A DNA stretch of 5,496 nt, taken from IMG/VR virus record IMGVR_UViG_2609459846_000013, one strand, 5' to 3'. The position numbers and the translations under genes are program-made. The notes beneath the pieces were generated by a model. That model saw only the letters and a list, made by a program, of their open reading frames with translations. It was not told where the DNA came from and searched no databases. Positions within the stretch are counted from its first letter, which is position 1; the number at the start of each line of letters is the position of its first letter. This document shows, piece after piece, positions 204-5,486 of the stretch. The stretch is from a virus (lineage: Duplodnaviria; Heunggongvirae; Uroviricota; Caudoviricetes).

Positions 204-350
204 ATGCCAATCAATGATCGGAAGCATGCCAAATCGTGATCGATTGTGATGCCAAACTGTGATCGGAGATGAATGCCAAATCATGATCGATTCGAATGCC
301 AAACTGCGATCGATTCAGATGCCATTTTGCAGGGTAAGCGTAGATCGGAT
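204..350. repeat. Tandem array of ~23-bp direct repeats, each containing a GATC (Dam) site; 5 well-conserved units at 204-325 plus degenerate units to ~350
   Basis: Units start at 204, 226, 249, 273, 296 and 319 (partial), all beginning ATGCCAA(A) and containing (T)GATCG; approximate consensus ATGCCAAAYNRTGATCGRNNNNN. A seventh GATCGG lies at 343-348 and CGGATAC occurs twice (346-352, 356-362). Six GATC sites in about 140 bp. Confidence 0.85.
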
Positions 351-867
351 ACAGGCGGATACTGACTTCATTCAGTTTTGGGGTTGCCGTCTGGTTACGT
401 GCCGCACCTTCTTCGCCGTGTCCCACGACCGCACCCCCGGCAGAAACCAGTTGCTTAAATTCATTACTGTGAATGGTTTTAACAGTACAGATTTTACGCA
501 TCACCGACTCATCAGAAAGCTGACGCATAATTTCTCTGTTCAGTTCCGGGATAACCGTATAACCACCATCAGCCGGAACACTGCCGGACAGGTTGCGGGT
601 TTCCCCGGTCAGAATGTAAGAGCGTAGCTCATTTTTGGTGATTTTATCTTCGACGGGAACACCAGGCTGGTTACGTTCTTCATCAGCCACAGACTCGAGG
701 CGGGAAATTTCTGTGTCGAGGGAATCGGCTTTTGCACGCAGTTCATCAAACTGTTTGCCTTCGTCATCGGTTAGACTGCGGTTTTCACTGTCGGCTTTTT
801 CCAGCAGGGATCGCATCTGGTTTTTCAGGGCGGTTTTTTGCTGGCGGAGTTCGATTAATTTCTTCAT
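211..867 (-). CDS. HK97-fold phage major capsid protein, N-terminal portion only (delta-domain coiled coil plus start of capsid core); probably truncated or interrupted
   Basis: ORF-track protein of 218 aa. The N-terminal ~65 aa are coiled-coil-like (MKKLIELRQQKTALKNQMRSLLEKADSENRSLTDDEGKQFDELRAKADSLDTEISRLE), followed by SGSVPADGGYTVIPELNREIMRQLSDESVMRKICTVKTI...AGGAVVGHGEEGAA, which matches the conserved G-G-Y-x-V-P-E...R-x-hydrophobic...V-G-E-G-A-A block of HK97-family capsids as I recall it. Full-length capsids are usually over 300 aa; here recognisable similarity stops by roughly nt 322-376 and the last ~36 codons are translated from the tandem repeats. Start ATG at 867-865 with only a weak RBS. 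Confidence 0.55.
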   Translation of the reverse strand: MKKLIELRQQKTALKNQMRSLLEKADSENRSLTDDEGKQFDELRAKADSLDTEISRLESVADEERNQPGVPVEDKITKNELRSYILTGETRNLSGSVPADGGYTVIPELNREIMRQLSDESVMRKICTVKTIHSNEFKQLVSAGGAVVGHGEEGAARNQTATPKLNEVSIRLYPIYAYPAKWHLNRSQFGIRIDHDLAFISDHSLASQSITIWHASDH

Positions 868-1100
868 GAAGGTTTTCTCGCATTGGTTAAGATTCAGGAC
901 GTGAAACCAACACGGGGGGAGCGCCGCCCGACACTCTCGGCATCTCGCAGATCAACCCGGCATCGCGCAGGGGGTCAGGCGGCATTGTGGCGGCTCACGT
1001 CTGAGTGCCACACGCCAACATATACATAAAAATCAGTATGTAAACATCAGCCAGAATCACCGAACAACCTGGAACAACCACGAACAAATAATTTACAAAA
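868..1100 (-). promoter_or_regulatory. Intergenic control region upstream of the capsid-like gene; contains paired direct repeats that could be operator/activator sites
   Basis: 233-bp non-coding gap between the terminator and the capsid-like start. Direct repeats CGGCATC(T/G)CGCAG at 938-950 and 958-970 (20 bp apart, two helical turns); CGAACAA at 1061-1067 and 1081-1087 with GAACAACC at 1062-1069 and 1072-1079. No convincing sigma70 -35/-10 pair found by eye on the minus strand, so an activator-dependent promoter is possible. Confidence 0.3.
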
Positions 1101-1104
1101 CCTG

Positions 1105-1136
1105 AAAAAAGGCCCGGAAAAAATCCGGGCCTTTAT
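1105..1136 (-). terminator. Rho-independent terminator (bidirectional hairpin) ending the minus-strand operon
   Basis: Perfect 8-bp stem GGCCCGGA (1111-1118) / TCCGGGCC (1124-1131) with a 5-nt loop. On the minus strand the hairpin is followed by TTTTTT (rc of 1105-1110); on the plus strand by TTTAT. Sits 5-10 nt downstream of the stop of the 1141-1389 ORF. Confidence 0.7.
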
Positions 1137-1140
1137 CGCT

Positions 1141-1389
1141 TTATTGTTTCACTGGCTCCCGCATTCTGCGTCTTATTTTCCACAAATATTCGATCATCGC
1201 TTCCACCTGCTCACGGTTGGTTGCGAAAATTTCCCCGGTCAGTGAGCTACGCAGAAAATCATGATGATCCACAAAAAATAACGCATCGGAAGAAAGCAAC
1301 CGACGATATTTTTTTGCTGTCGTGGTTTCCAGATCATCAAAACCATGAAGCTTTTTATGTTGCTGAACTTCTTCAAATGTCACTGGCAT
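1141..1389 (-). CDS. Hypothetical small protein (82 aa), last gene of the ori-proximal operon
   Basis: ATG at 1389-1387 preceded by AAGGGGGAT, overlapping the upstream gene's stop by 10 nt (ATGCCAGTGA). Basic C-terminus (KIRRRMREPVKQ). No family recognised by eye. Confidence 0.55.
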   Translation of the reverse strand: MPVTFEEVQQHKKLHGFDDLETTTAKKYRRLLSSDALFFVDHHDFLRSSLTGEIFATNREQVEAMIEYLWKIRRRMREPVKQ

Positions 1390-1919
1390 GTATCCCCCTT
1401 TGCTGCCCGGCGCTGGCGCTTGTGCTTCTCATTCAGCACCATCAGCCGTGTTTCTGCCTCCTGCTGTTCCTGTGGTGTCACTTCCCCACATGGCTGGCCT
1501 TTCAGGTCGTAACGTGCGCCACCAGCTATCAGGGCGCGGTAATAGCGCGGAGACTGCGCATAGGATGCCAGCGTCGCACGTAATACCCCCGACCCGAATG
1601 CCAGCCCCCTGACGGCGATATCCTGCATCAGGTCGTCGAATATCCCCACCTTAAGCGGCTTCGGTGCTTTATGGCTGAATAAGTCAGGCCACATCTCAGT
1701 GAGGCGGTTAACGCGTCGGCGGTTTTTGCGCTGCCTTTTGGTCATATGCTGCCACGGTGTCGCCCCTGCGGTCTTCTGTGGCTTCTGCTGTGCGTTCTGA
1801 TTGCCGGGTATCACTTTATGCGCCGATGTGGTTTTATCCTGCTCTTGCGCCGCCTGCGTCGTTTTCTGCGGCGTGCCGTAAATGCCTTTCGGCTTCCGGT
1901 TAATGGTCAGCGTTGTCAT
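1380..1919 (-). CDS. FinO/ProQ-domain RNA-binding protein (RNA chaperone-like), 179 aa
   Basis: The C-terminal half (PLKVGIFDDLMQDIAVRGLAFGSGVLRATLASYAQSPRYYRALIAGGARYDLKGQPCGEVTPQEQQEAE) aligns by eye with the E. coli ProQ N-terminal FinO-like domain as I recall it (PLKIGIFQDLV...[35 protein letters not shown]...). The N-terminal ~80 aa are Lys/Gln/Arg-rich and probably disordered, as in F-plasmid FinO. ATG at 1919-1917 with GGGGGAAGG RBS. Confidence 0.8.
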   Translation of the reverse strand: MTTLTINRKPKGIYGTPQKTTQAAQEQDKTTSAHKVIPGNQNAQQKPQKTAGATPWQHMTKRQRKNRRRVNRLTEMWPDLFSHKAPKPLKVGIFDDLMQDIAVRGLAFGSGVLRATLASYAQSPRYYRALIAGGARYDLKGQPCGEVTPQEQQEAETRLMVLNEKHKRQRRAAKGDTCQ

Positions 1920-1955
1920 GCCTTCCCCCGTAATTACTCTGTTCGCTGTTGTGAA

Positions 1956-2381
1956 TTAAAACGGTATGTTATCCCCGTACGGGTCATCGTGCTGGCTTGT
2001 CTGTTGTTTTGCCCTGTTCAGTGCGTCAGTGGCCTGGCCCTGTTGACCTTTTTTGCCGCCCGGTCGCGCCGTTCGCGCACTGATTACGCTGTCTGCAATA
2101 ACCTGCCAGCCCTGCCGCGTTTCCCCGTTCTGGCCTGTCCACTGGCTCACCTGCATGTTACCCGCCACGCTCACCAGTTCGCCTTTGTGGTGTTTTGCCA
2201 GTGCGTCGGCCTGTCTGCCAAACGCCAGGACAGATAACCACATCGTCGCCGTTCCGTCATCTGCCTGGCTGCACGGCAGGGGAACCGCCATACTCGCCAT
2301 CGCCATTTGTGTCCCTTTGCTGGTGGTCTTTAACTGCGGGTCAGCCACCAGCCGCCCGTAAGCCGCTATCTGTGCTGTCAT
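1956..2381 (-). CDS. ssb: Single-stranded DNA-binding protein (SSB), 141 aa
   Basis: OB-fold signature as in E. coli SSB (GRLVADPQLKTT...MWLSVLAFGRQADALAKHHKGELVSVAGNMQVSQWTGQNGETRQGWQVIADSV), a Gly/Gln-rich linker, and the acidic C-terminal tail ...DDPYGDNIPF (compare E. coli ...DFDDDIPF). ATG at 2381-2379 with GGAGAG RBS; ATGA overlap with the upstream ORF. Confidence 0.85.
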   Translation of the reverse strand: MTAQIAAYGRLVADPQLKTTSKGTQMAMASMAVPLPCSQADDGTATMWLSVLAFGRQADALAKHHKGELVSVAGNMQVSQWTGQNGETRQGWQVIADSVISARTARPGGKKGQQGQATDALNRAKQQTSQHDDPYGDNIPF

Positions 2382-2623
2382 GCTGTCTGCTCTCCGGTTT
2401 TAACGTTGATGGTTGTCACCTGTTCCGCTTCGGCAATCTCCCGTTCTGTCAGCGTGGCAAAGTTTGCCGCTGCCGTGGTCATGAATGCGCTTACCAGTTC
2501 GGGATGTGCTTTTGCGTACCCTTCTCCCGCGTTGCGGTCGATGATTTTTATCGCCACCCTCAGCCAGTGTTCTGTCAAATCAAGGGCGTGAGATTGTGGT
2601 TTTTTTGCGTGCTTCGTTGTCAC
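2378..2623 (-). CDS. Hypothetical small protein (81 aa), first gene after the origin
   Basis: Apparent GTG start at 2623-2621 preceded by TGAGGTAAAG; stop overlaps the ssb ATG (ATGA at 2381-2378), indicating translational coupling. No family recognised. Confidence 0.5.
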   Translation of the reverse strand: MTTKHAKKPQSHALDLTEHWLRVAIKIIDRNAGEGYAKAHPELVSAFMTTAAANFATLTEREIAEAEQVTTINVKTGEQTA

Positions 2624-2910: not shown

Positions 2911-4725
2911 TTAATTTTTGCTGTCGTCATTTGTGACCGATGCACATGATGGCATCCAGTCTTCTGAATCCTCTGTCAGTGTCACATTTGAACGCAAACC
3001 GTGCTTCGTTTTCCGTTTTATATACTCCCTGCCATATTCCGCCATTGCCCCCGGCATATCTTTACCGAAGCGCGTCAGTGTTACAGGTTTACCGAATCCG
3101 TGTGCCCTCATATATGCCAGATAGGCGTGATAAAGATACCTGCGCGGACTGAACGGAATAATTTCGGCATTACCCACTAACAGACCATCACACATTACCG
3201 ACGACATGAGATAGCCACAGAAGTCCACCAGCGAATCGCCCTCGCGTTTTATCACCAGAGCTTCTTCTGATTTCTGCTGCTCATACAGCAGGCGTTTAGC
3301 TTCGTCCTGGTCAGAAAAACGAGTAAGCAGATGGCGAATCACAACCGCCAGCTCTCCTTCTATTTTTTCTGCCAGCATGGGGTCGCGCTCGTTCTCCGGT
3401 ACAACCTCCGAAAAATTGAATATCACCCGACGACGTGAGATCCCCCCGCTGCGGTCACTGAATGACATGGCGTTATTGTTCACCGCCAGCACGACCGCCT
3501 GAATGCGTGTTGAGTAGGGGGCTTTATGCTTCGGGTCGATTGCCACCTTGTCACCGCCTGTAATAGCCTTAATTCCTGCGCCATCACCAGCGTAGCGGGT
3601 CATATCCGGCATGATAATCAGCGAAAAGCCAACCACTAACGCGCGTTCCCTTGCATCTTCCAGCGCCTTCATGCTTGCCGATACTGTGTTGGCCTTACCC
3701 GCCAGCATGGTGCAAATCTCCGCCATCACGCTTTTACCACTTCCCCCTGGACCTGTTACCTCAATGAATAACTGCCAGTCGTACCGGTTCGCCAGCACCA
3801 TGAATAATGCAGCCAGCACGCGATCCGTCTTGCGGTCATTCTCTGCCACCGAGCAGCGTAACCACTTCCAGAAATTCGGCGCATGTGTTGCCAGCGTTTC
3901 CCCCTCTGCTGGTGGGCTGAAAGGTAATTCACTGGCAATTAACAACCAGTCGTTTTTGTTATGCTCCCGAAAATTACCTGTTCTGGTATCAAATACCCCG
4001 TTACTGAATCCAATCAGGTTACGGGCTGTATTCCCCATTACAGGCAAACTTAACTTCATGGTATCGACCGCCGATTTAATGGCGTTCTGCGAATAGCTGA
4101 TCTCCGCATCAATGAAAATCTGCGCCATAGCACGCTGTAACTCTTTATCCTGAATCGGCTCCCATACAACGCCGTTGTAATGGTGAACAGTGTCAGAGTC
4201 GGCATGAATCGCCAGTTCACCGCCATAATGTGCCAGGAGAACTTCGCCGCGCTGGCTTGCTCCCATCTGGTTAAGCGCCAGTGGTGCGGCGCTGTCTTCT
4301 GTTTTTTTCTTAACAGGAAGCTGAATCACCAGACCATCAGAAAGATTCTGGCGCTCACGGGCCAGATATTCGCGCCAGTTCTGCACCTCCTGGCCGTGCA
4401 TACCCTCAGGATAAAAATTTGCATCCTGTACGCCTGCCGCCGCCAGCTTCTGACCAATCGCCTTTATCATTACTGGCGCAAGATATCCGGCCCTGAATAT
4501 GCGCACGGATTTTCTGCCTTCCGGCACAATTTGCAGCTTATCCAGTTCGGATAACTGCTGCTCCCCAAGCCACACAGGAGGCTCATTATCTCCGGCCATA
4601 CGCGCGTCATGTTCCTGCCATTGTTTTGCGTGTGACCAGGCATCACTACCCGCAAAAATAATGACTTCTGTTTCTTTGTGTTTTATGCCGCGTGACTGCT
4701 GTTTTACGTTCGGTGCCAGTTTCAT
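2911..4725 (-). CDS. Replication initiator primase-helicase, P4-alpha / D5 family (phage- or plasmid-associated primase C-terminal helicase domain), 604 aa
   Basis: Longest ORF in the window. Walker A GPGGSGKS at residues 325-332, followed by a hydrophobic stretch with an acidic residue (LVVGFSLIIMPDM) and an Asn-rich motif (AVNNN) typical of SF3/D5-type helicases. A D5_N-like region lies upstream (HYGGELAIHADSDTVHHYNGVVWEP). The C-terminal ~120 aa are basic and aromatic-rich and may bind the origin. ATG at 4725-4723 with GGGG RBS; ATGA overlap with the upstream ORF. Primase catalytic motifs were not identified by eye. Confidence 0.9.
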   Translation of the reverse strand: MKLAPNVKQQSRGIKHKETEVIIFAGSDAWSHAKQWQEHDARMAGDNEPPVWLGEQQLSELDKLQIVPEGRKSVRIFRAGYLAPVMIKAIGQKLAAAGVQDANFYPEGMHGQEVQNWREYLARERQNLSDGLVIQLPVKKKTEDSAAPLALNQMGASQRGEVLLAHYGGELAIHADSDTVHHYNGVVWEPIQDKELQRAMAQIFIDAEISYSQNAIKSAVDTMKLSLPVMGNTARNLIGFSNGVFDTRTGNFREHNKNDWLLIASELPFSPPAEGETLATHAPNFWKWLRCSVAENDRKTDRVLAALFMVLANRYDWQLFIEVTGPGGSGKSVMAEICTMLAGKANTVSASMKALEDARERALVVGFSLIIMPDMTRYAGDGAGIKAITGGDKVAIDPKHKAPYSTRIQAVVLAVNNNAMSFSDRSGGISRRRVIFNFSEVVPENERDPMLAEKIEGELAVVIRHLLTRFSDQDEAKRLLYEQQKSEEALVIKREGDSLVDFCGYLMSSVMCDGLLVGNAEIIPFSPRRYLYHAYLAYMRAHGFGKPVTLTRFGKDMPGAMAEYGREYIKRKTKHGLRSNVTLTEDSEDWMPSCASVTNDDSKN

Positions 4726-5021
4726 TTTTTACCCCTGAATCCGTTAATCATGGTTTTCAGCTTCTGGATGTTTGCCCGTGCCCTGGCGTTGCTGGTGGAC
4801 ACGTTATGCGGCGCGGTCTGTACCAGAGAAAAATCACGCCGGAACTGATAAACAGGCATCACGCAATCATATTCGTAACCTTCACGGCGGTAGGTTACGC
4901 GCCGTTCTTCCACGTCCTTAATCATTACCGTGCCGCCGTACTGGTCGCGGTAAATATCGCCGCGCGTAAATTTAGGGTGAGTGTTGCCACTGGCAGTTAA
5001 GCCAGAATATTTAAGTTTCAT
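4722..5021 (-). CDS. Hypothetical protein (99 aa) translationally coupled to the primase-helicase
   Basis: ATG at 5021-5019 with GGAGA RBS; stop overlaps the primase ATG. No family recognised. Position is analogous to the small ORFs preceding alpha in P4-like left operons (inference only). Confidence 0.6.
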   Translation of the reverse strand: MKLKYSGLTASGNTHPKFTRGDIYRDQYGGTVMIKDVEERRVTYRREGYEYDCVMPVYQFRRDFSLVQTAPHNVSTSNARARANIQKLKTMINGFRGKK

Positions 5022-5026
5022 TATTT

Positions 5027-5260
5027 TTATTCTCCGGTGTGCTGTTCTTTATATCTGTCGTGCAATAGATCTATTTCTTGCAGTTCCATTATTACAGGCT
5101 CAAGAAGCGTTATTAATGCCGTGGCAATTCTTGATTTTTGTTTGTCGCGTTCATTGTCGCCAAGTGTTTCAAGCCATATGCGCAATATTTCCAGCATGTT
5201 TTCACTGTGAGAAAGTGCAAGAAATGCGCGGTCTATTGTTTCGTGGTAAATATCACGCAT
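5027..5260 (-). CDS. Hypothetical small protein (77 aa), predicted helical
   Basis: ATG at 5260-5258 preceded by GAGGATG; lies 5 nt upstream of the next gene and overlaps the preceding ORF by 8 nt (ATGCGTGA). Confidence 0.55.
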   Translation of the reverse strand: MRDIYHETIDRAFLALSHSENMLEILRIWLETLGDNERDKQKSRIATALITLLEPVIMELQEIDLLHDRYKEQHTGE

Positions 5261-5486
5261 GGCTTACATCCTCAGGAAATTTTCTTCTATAACGCGCCTC
5301 TGCCACATATTCCGCATAATCGGCGGCGATATTCAGTACATCAAGCCCCGTTGATTTATATTCTCTCGTGGAAAGTAAGAAAAAAGCCGCTCTAATAAGC
5401 TCTGGCATTGACGAAAGCGCATCAGCCGCATCATCAGGAACGCCGGAAAATTCCTGTTTCAGGGAATTAAAACGATCATCACGCAT
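5253..5486 (-). CDS. Hypothetical small protein (77 aa or more; reading frame stays open to the window end)
   Basis: ATG at 5486-5484, but no in-frame stop between it and the window edge, so the true start may lie beyond 5496. Directly preceded on the minus strand by a G8 run. Acidic and helical; no family recognised. Confidence 0.45.
   Translation of the reverse strand: MRDDRFNSLKQEFSGVPDDAADALSSMPELIRAAFFLLSTREYKSTGLDVLNIAADYAEYVAEARYRRKFPEDVSHA

Follow-up and report, generated by a model that had tools for sequence, protein, structure and literature searches.

The window analysed here is a stretch of 5,496 nucleotides (nt) from IMG/VR virus record IMGVR_UViG_2609459846_000013 (Caudoviricetes), and our subject is a run of four minus-strand genes at positions 1141-2623, which lie between a replication origin and the packaging genes of a capsid-forming phage-inducible chromosomal island (cf-PICI). 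[quoted passage not shown] An earlier note on this DNA had proposed the four as a candidate accessory module, possibly analogous to the leading regions of conjugative plasmids. Our comparison of relatives points instead to independently shuffled cassettes, among which p82 behaves as a near-core gene of the island. The four genes and the terminator that follows them are arranged as follows.

2378-2623, minus strand: p81, 81-aa protein with a GTG start, from the open reading frame (ORF) list; first gene after the origin, coupled to the SSB gene.
1956-2381, minus strand: SSB, 141 aa, from the ORF list; Pfam SSB.
1380-1919, minus strand: FinO/ProQ-domain protein, 179 aa, from the ORF list; Pfam ProQ.
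1141-1389, minus strand: p82, 82-aa protein, from the ORF list; phrog_1957; final same-strand gene ahead of the packaging operon.
1102-1134, minus strand: intrinsic terminator ending the left (replication) operon; fold -25.3 kcal/mol, z = -5.6.

The same four coding sequences are annotated by RefSeq in near-identical E. coli chromosomes. The p81 stop and the SSB start share ATGA (TCAT on the plus strand, 2378-2381), the FinO-domain gene and p82 share 10 nt (1380-1389), and the SSB and FinO-domain genes are spaced by 36 nt. All four starts are preceded by a purine-rich Shine-Dalgarno sequence: GAGG, 9 nt ahead of the GTG, for p81; GGAGAG for SSB; GGGGGAAGG for the FinO-domain gene; and AGGGGGA for p82. 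Every structural detail reported earlier, namely the four minus-strand genes, both overlaps, the ribosome-binding sites, the iteron origin and the strong terminator, was verified. Pattern scans of the four-gene unit gave no terminator-like site on the minus strand, and the stretch that separates p81 from the primase gene yielded no sigma-70-like promoter; on the plus strand, terminator-like sites within the genes were not in excess (4 vs 2.9 in shuffles). The terminator itself consists of a GC-rich hairpin (1108-1134) followed by a U-run on the minus strand, and its stem shows compensatory variants in relatives (GGCCCGGA/TCCGGGCC vs GGCCTGGA/TCCAGGTC). Since the scans gave neither a minus-strand terminator inside the unit nor a promoter ahead of p81, a strong terminator follows p82, and the capsid operon has a promoter-like site and leader of its own, a single transcription unit is plausible.

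Across related elements, the four genes do not stay together. Among 58 distinct loci anchored on a primase at least 87% identical, p81 with SSB was present in 46, p82 in 14 and the FinO-domain gene in two, and all four occurred in only one, the very outcome that the earlier note had named as speaking against a coherent four-gene module. Pooling all distinct loci with enough flanking DNA (130) raised the number of complete sets to six, the commonest layouts being primase-p81-SSB alone, primase-FinO alone and p81-SSB-p82-capsid. Matches in IMG/VR numbered 46 for the 82-aa gene, 76 for the FinO-domain gene, 358 for the 81-aa gene and 405 for SSB, and 1846 of the 5426 complete E. coli genomes matched part of the region, with 44 matching at least 80% of it. 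In some annotated layouts the origin is immediately followed by the FinO-domain gene and SSB is missing, in others PerC comes after SSB, and in others p82 adjoins SSB; these are seen with two unrelated initiators, a primase or a RepA-type helicase. Because the genes fail to co-occur across related elements, they do not make up a fixed four-gene unit. Judging by this distribution, they are independently shuffled cassettes at the distal end of the replication operon.

For PICIs, the slot adjoining the primase has been described in print as accessory or variable (PMC11364771; bioRxiv 10.1101/2025.02.11.637232). The description of the genes as an "accessory module" thus holds for the slot, and it fails both for p82 and for the notion of a single module. 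These islands indeed vary in the genes that separate the replication gene from the packaging genes, with p82 as the conserved exception. The same island position, likewise of variable content, holds the primase-adjacent Tai defence region of PICIs (He et al. 2024, PMC11364771); the Tai proteins, however, are unrelated to the present four, and here p82 is conserved rather than variable.

The p82 protein belongs to phrog_1957, a family of unknown function (4e-36), and gave no match in Pfam, NCBIfam or PADLOC. A p82-family gene precedes the capsid gene in 37 of 41 distinct capsid-anchored loci, with no other same-strand gene in between, and these include copies 34-46% identical that directly follow the initiator without SSB, the FinO-domain gene or PerC. 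A p82 profile gathered 172 proteins, all named "hypothetical" and none with a Pfam domain, from Klebsiella, Raoultella, Enterobacter, Citrobacter, Serratia, Kosakonia and other genera. Islands of Klebsiella, Serratia and other E. coli run from primase through origin, p82 and opposite-strand cargo genes to the capsid gene, and the p82 arrangement is kept in 20 of 36 loci (30 genomes) in the GTDB species-representative set. On this evidence p82 is best regarded as a near-core gene of HK97-type cf-PICIs, linked to the capsid operon and with relatives across Enterobacterales, and not as the accessory effector it had been suggested to be. An AlphaFold2 model of p82, built from a shallow alignment, had a predicted local distance difference test score (pLDDT) of 50.6.

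Many cf-PICIs carry one or two genes on the opposite strand, 75-257 aa long and without a Pfam domain, between p82 and the structured leader that precedes the capsid gene (for example, L003 4475-4981, L004 4531-5004, L321 6299-7072 and L326 6296-7599). The window's own island has no opposite-strand gene there. This position appears to be the actual cargo slot, possibly for defence, "before the packaging operon" of bioRxiv 10.1101/2025.02.11.637232.

At the other end of the unit, p81 falls into phrog_1231, also of unknown function (2e-49), with 162 close and 203 remote homologues and a conserved core, ID..G.GYAK.HPEL.AAFM.TAA.DF. It had no match in Pfam, NCBIfam or PADLOC, and none of 66 remote relatives carried a meaningful Pfam family. 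Its AlphaFold2 model (pLDDT 85) is a helical hairpin with helices at residues 9-32 and 41-70, for which no PDB fold matched at E <= 0.001. A tblastn search of p81 and p82 against 50,697 phage records returned zero matches. Overall, the earlier view that the two small proteins belong to no characterised family is borne out, as profile searches gave only PHROG families of unknown function, and so is the recognition of the other two products, whose Pfam scores exceed the cut-offs.

The SSB scored 59.4 bits against Pfam SSB (PF00436; cut-off 26, 4e-16) and 62.7 against TIGR00621 (cut-off 53.95). It is distant from E. coli SSB (3.8e-5), its best PDB match being a Thermus SSB, and as read from the sequence it retains the aromatic positions of the oligonucleotide-binding (OB) fold. 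Its tail is acidic and resembles the C-terminal tail of SSB (...DDPYGDNIPF), and the IPF end is found in ~75 of 90 distinct variants. In E. coli SSB, the IPF tip binds partner proteins. Upstream of the SSB gene, an ORF in ATGA overlap was present in 112 of 136 distinct contexts, and a p81-like ORF lay just upstream of the SSB start in 109 of the 136. From these contexts, p81 and SSB would be a conserved pair, coupled in translation and frequent among E. coli PICIs. That the two are strictly tied in function was also considered and is unsupported, as longer contigs show that p81 is not consistently beside SSB. Relatives of p81 occur without SSB (in L342 and L343 directly followed by p82, in others beside integrase or excisionase genes), and remote relatives directly follow primase genes in other satellites. 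Contigs bearing remote relatives are mostly short, and these primase, integrase and excisionase neighbourhoods come from the longer ones. In three SSB contexts the overlapping upstream ORF encodes a 257-267-aa protein ending in ...GPVKNGEHTA, similar to the p81 end ...VKTGEQTA, which may mark the 3' end of p81 as a recombination joint.

A search of 72,556 plasmid records with the SSB yielded 47 matches, of which 41 were non-mobilizable and two conjugative. Most of the SSB-bearing plasmid records are small (10-40 kb) and non-mobilizable (for example, NZ_CP066105.1, 15,459 bp; OW969629.1, 10,592 bp; NZ_CP033626.1, 22,859 bp), and possibly they are phage-plasmids, or satellites in excised or circular form, that entered the databases as plasmids. 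The leading regions of conjugative plasmids (ssb-psiB-ardA) resemble the present locus in carrying an extra SSB on a mobile element beside small unknown genes. Unlike them, the present locus has an SSB of another lineage, has no oriT and no single-stranded entry, and places the SSB downstream of a replication origin. With only two conjugative plasmids among the matches and the genes on a chromosomal satellite, the leading-region analogy cannot be upheld.

The FinO-domain protein scored 85 bits against Pfam ProQ/FinO (PF04352; cut-off 27, 4.5e-24), the match spanning profile positions 5-108 of 109. It missed the NCBIfam cut-offs for FinO (67.7 vs 136) and ProQ (59.1 vs 127). By these scores, it is a member of the family and an orthologue of neither. 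A basic N-terminus (~residues 1-60, probably disordered) precedes the FinO domain (~65-171), and there is no Tudor-like C-terminal domain. PDB matches were to the ProQ N-terminal domain (8e-12) and FinO (6e-11), with the PLK.GIF..L and S.RY motifs aligned. Identity to F-plasmid FinO is only 34-36%, over residues 77-171, which weakens the parallel with F plasmids that had accompanied the leading-region analogy. The FinO/ProQ domain is common to FinO of F-like plasmids, FopA of IncI plasmids and chromosomal ProQ (review PMC9977716). The present protein shares a basic N-terminal extension with FinO and a mobile-element location with both FinO and FopA; unlike plasmid FinO, it sits in a phage satellite, and no antisense RNA partner was identified. 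Hairpins near its gene that could serve as ligands are the terminator and the capsid leader.

The FinO-domain gene and PerC alternate at one position, and the former was found in none of the 36 capsid-leader loci from species-representative genomes. Its distribution is that of a rare optional cassette. Genes for ProQ/FinO-like proteins and PerC have already been listed, from annotation alone, as accessory genes of classical PICIs in a 2026 survey (PMC13612085).

The surroundings of the four genes identify the element that carries them. The further features of the window are listed below.

2911-4725, minus strand: replication initiator, a 604-aa D5/P4-type primase-helicase; Pfam D5_N, DUF5906 and Pox_D5.
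2650-2900, no strand given: AT-rich origin with P4-type iterons; exact iteron copies.
1017-1100, minus strand: candidate promoter region of the packaging operon; TTTGTAAAT box, phased repeats and -35/-10-like sites.
865-1011, minus strand: predicted structured 5' leader of the capsid operon; covariance model R1, 62.8 bits.
331-867, minus strand: 5' part of the HK97-type major capsid gene, interrupted by an insertion sequence (IS); Pfam Phage_capsid 2.7e-12; RefSeq "phage major capsid protein, incomplete".
1-324, no strand given: end of an IS21-family element (ISSso4-like) within the capsid gene; genome coverage break.

The whole window aligns to E. coli chromosomes at 99.8% identity. The island occupies two different chromosomal sites in two strains, and 2425 of 2427 E. 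coli placements are chromosomal. It measures ~15 kb, and in the intact relative L002 the distance between int and the final gene is ~14.7 kb. Its left end runs from a tyrosine integrase through an AlpA-type helix-turn-helix (HTH) regulator, an Icd-like gene, several small genes and DUF4222 to the D5/P4-type primase and the origin. To the right of the four genes follow the HK97-type major capsid, prohead protease, portal, head-tail connector, HNH, TerS and TerL genes, and in the annotation of L001 and L002 the island has no tail or lysis genes. Both annotations show the order expected of a cf-PICI, in which integrase and AlpA-type regulator at one end precede a replication gene that adjoins an origin, and Pfam Phage_AlpA or HTH_17 was found in relatives. 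L002 likewise has its own packaging module, no tail or lysis genes and a size within ~10-18 kb. As this gene order and the lack of tail and lysis genes match the published cf-PICI architecture (bioRxiv 10.1101/2022.09.08.507074; 10.1101/2025.02.11.637232), we classify the element as a chromosomal cf-PICI of E. coli, neither a plasmid nor P4. The combination of genes that the earlier note could not place in a described system belongs to an element type already described.

The prototype cf-PICI EcCIEDL933 (Alqurainy et al., bioRxiv 10.1101/2022.09.08.507074; He et al., bioRxiv 10.1101/2025.02.11.637232) has the same order of int, AlpA, primase or rep, origin and HK97 packaging genes. cf-PICIs and the present island are alike in their length of ~15 kb and in having variable regions on either side of the packaging operon; the texts of these two papers give no description of the genes between origin and capsid. 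What is written on gene 1792 of EcCIEDL933 offers no basis for matching it to any of the present genes. Unlike the prototype, the present copy is defective, with an IS21 element in its capsid gene.

Replication genes and origin account for the resemblance to P4. The initiator matches phrog_864 "DNA primase" at 5e-193 and is named "DNA primase family protein" in RefSeq, while it stays below the TIGR01613 cut-off (96 vs 108.7). The iteron GGTGAACAG occurs in 10 exact copies, in both orientations, at 2675-2897, and the 15 iteron matches in the window as a whole were reached in none of 200 shuffles. Its complement is CTGTTCACC, which contains TGTTCACC, a sequence that we take to be the type I iteron of P4 ori/crr. 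The island and the P4 ori/crr-alpha arrangement would share this iteron core, as well as an adjacent D5-type helicase with primase annotation. Unlike P4, the island lacks psu, delta and sid and has its own capsid genes. The P4-type origin of the earlier note thus stands, within an element that is a chromosomal phage satellite.

Between p82 and the capsid gene lies a control region with a conserved layout. On the minus strand at 865-1140, the succession of terminator, TTTGTAAAT box, three phased repeats, weak promoter and ~147-nt leader is kept across the order, and the sequence of the phased repeats varies between island types at the same place. In the window, the conserved TTTGTAAAT box lies at 1088-1100. 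Three TTGTTC repeats with 10-bp phasing (GAACAA on the plus strand, 1062-1087) sit just upstream of a -35-like TTTACA (1039-1044), which is followed by a -10-like TATGTT (1017-1022); the promoter is weak. In L002, which has such repeats at 12736-12761, 19035-19070 and 5741-5756, phased TTGTTC repeats also occur between the AlpA-like gene and int and at the far island end (7 matches vs 0.16 expected). By their placement, these repeats look like arm-type integrase or AlpA/excisionase binding sites reused at the late promoter. Two other binders were considered. The primase is unlikely, as the same repeats occur in islands with a RepA-type initiator. p82 was rejected: L260 and L261 have near-identical p82 and different repeats, and TTGTTC repeats accompany p82 types only 38-46% identical and occur in an island without p82.

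The leader was modelled from seven sequences. At its predicted 5' end is P1, an invariant 25-nt hairpin, GUGGCACUCAGACGUGAGCCGCCAC; P2 is a long variable hairpin or three-way junction; and in P3, GGUUUC.ACG pairs with CG(A)GAAACC directly before the AUG, covering the ribosome-binding region. The leader is also present at L002 12539-12685 and in L413-L448. The covariance model matches 63 of 82 sources, every match ending at the capsid start codon, and the leader was found at all 36 species-representative loci that hold the exact 25-mer (GTDB; 30 genomes, ~20 genera of Enterobacterales, from Proteus to Pectobacterium). In 41 distinct sequences, 95.8% of cells were paired, vs 33-52% with slid partners, a contrast that is still large although the alignment, having been fitted to the model, leans toward structure. 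In 17 pairs both partners vary, and of the 12 pairs in the P2 base, 11 are compensatory; none of these measures was reached by any of 500 shuffles. Rfam 15 gave no match above chance at the leader region. The covariation argues that a conserved structured leader RNA precedes the cf-PICI capsid gene. Being present with and without each of them, the leader is independent of the FinO-domain gene and of p82.

Building on the gene identities, architecture, element type and lack of co-occurrence described above, we consider it reasonably probable that the four genes are the distal end of the replication operon, occupying a recombination-prone slot between the P4-type origin and the packaging operon as three independent units. 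We hold this with considerably more confidence than any single biochemical role. Following the PICI biology in the cited papers, helper induction would lead AlpA to turn on the left operon, giving a transcript that spans the primase gene, the origin and the four genes and ends at the terminator. SSB would then cover the single-stranded DNA that the primase-helicase of the island produces at the neighbouring origin, and would bring in host enzymes through its ...IPF tail, with p81 as an SSB-coupled co-factor. Where present, the FinO-domain protein may act as an RNA chaperone on terminator-type hairpins, the usual ligands of its family (PMC9977716), in island or host transcripts. p82, always just before the terminator and the packaging promoter, would serve the island life cycle rather than act as cargo, perhaps at the transition to packaging. 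The packaging operon would be a separate unit with its own promoter-like site and leader.

Several points weigh against parts of this account. Co-transcription with the primase gene, and its AlpA dependence, are what we infer and not what we observed. SSB is absent from 12 of the 58 primase-anchored relatives and so cannot be essential for replication, and p81 need not act through SSB, given the p81 relatives that occur without it. A search for an RNA partner of the FinO-domain protein in Rfam gave nothing above chance in the window or the whole island. Finally, other PICIs house anti-phage genes in the primase-adjacent slot (PMC11364771), so that some of the genes may have a part in defence or counter-defence.

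The first alternative, which is that of the earlier note, is that all four genes form an early-expressed counter-defence or anti-SOS module, like the plasmid ssb-psiB-ardA leading region. The variable slot, the small uncharacterised proteins and the position at which other PICIs carry Tai genes (PMC11364771) would suit such a role; immune systems are expected by the cf-PICI authors in the variable regions flanking the packaging operon (bioRxiv 10.1101/2025.02.11.637232); and, as none of the four proteins matched a known defence family in PADLOC, a new activity is conceivable. We nevertheless judge it improbable. The genes assort independently, p82 shows core-gene behaviour in its conservation with the capsid operon across Enterobacterales, and the position downstream of primase and origin, with no promoter of its own found, is not an early one. 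Because satellite DNA arrives in the cell packaged and double-stranded, its entry has no single-stranded stage in need of protection, and the near absence of this SSB from conjugative plasmids fits poorly with a leading-region function.

The FinO-domain cassette by itself could be host-directed cargo that rewires the small-RNA/ProQ network of the host, with effects on virulence, persistence or fitness. PerC-family proteins activate LEE virulence genes, and the FinO-domain gene swaps with PerC at the same position. Both are listed as "host-interaction" accessory genes of PICIs (PMC13612085). The rarity of the gene, both among primase-anchored relatives and in the species-representative loci, fits optional cargo, and its RNA-binding region aligns well with E. 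coli ProQ. Yet the gene lies inside an inducible operon with no sign of independent expression when integrated, and the well-studied FinO-domain proteins of mobile elements act mainly on RNAs of their own element, as in FinO/FinP and FopA/Inc (PMC9977716). We regard this as unlikely, if the least so of the alternatives. For p81 and SSB, a further option is that, instead of aiding island replication, they hinder the helper phage, for instance through competition for host SSB partners or a poisoning effect on phage replication. PICIs do interfere with helper phages, the partner-binding IPF tip is kept on an OB domain strongly diverged from that of the host SSB, and the pair is dispensable in the 12 relatives without SSB. 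Its location directly after the origin with two unrelated initiators (primase and RepA helicase), however, fits a general replication accessory, and there is no precedent for this role, which makes it very unlikely in our view.

We give equally little credence to an RNA-based variant in which p82, together with the FinO-domain chaperone where present, would act on the terminator hairpin and the P1/P3 leader to time capsid translation. The leader is found in many islands without the FinO-domain gene and in some without p82, and which promoter repeat an island has does not follow from its type of p82, all of which weakens it. If true, phage satellites would include one with a late switch based on RNA, of a kind described for none of them.

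Under the preferred reading, distal genes of the replication operon in a recombination-prone slot, the region divides into a putative core (p82, the terminator, the packaging promoter with its phased repeats, and the leader RNA) and cargo (p81/SSB, the FinO-domain gene and PerC). As satellites that have been recognised only recently, cf-PICIs make capsids of their own and pass from one bacterial genus to another, and in the literature searched their genes between the origin and the capsid operon were not examined; nor did we find there any discussion of SSB, p81 or p82 of PICIs. The element type, the variable slot and the SSB and FinO domain families were already known. Worth keeping are the core/cargo split, from which experimenters can take a few deletions to make; two satellite protein families that are uncharacterised, the p81-SSB pair and the near-core p82; and the leader RNA, which probably deserves more attention than the four-gene finding itself. 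Should ligands be found, a FinO-domain chaperone encoded by a satellite would place this RNA-binding family in a new setting.

The left end of the window derives from the insertion. Intact relatives and other genomes align only from window position 325 or 332 onward, and in L001 the IS21 genes istA/istB directly adjoin the truncated capsid gene. With its capsid gene split by an IS21-family element, the present island would not be able to build its own capsid. The "gatgccaaa..gtgatcg" repeats at ~200-320 fall inside the IS end, and the listed 218-aa ORF at 211-867 is capsid sequence running into IS sequence.

One relative, L333 (LR881103.1, "Escherichia phage vB_KppS-Ant", 16,548 bp), was deposited as an induced prophage and has cf-PICI gene content. 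Its termini adjoin the small terminase gene, the capsid leader is present, and no gene is annotated between primase and capsid; unusually among cf-PICIs, one of its genes is annotated as coding for a tape measure protein.

Upstream of the primase, the minus strand at 4722-5486 encodes a DUF4222 gene (83 bits) and two 77-aa genes whose matches are confined to PHROG families without a known function. In nearly all related islands DUF4222 comes ahead of the initiator, be the latter a primase or a RepA helicase.

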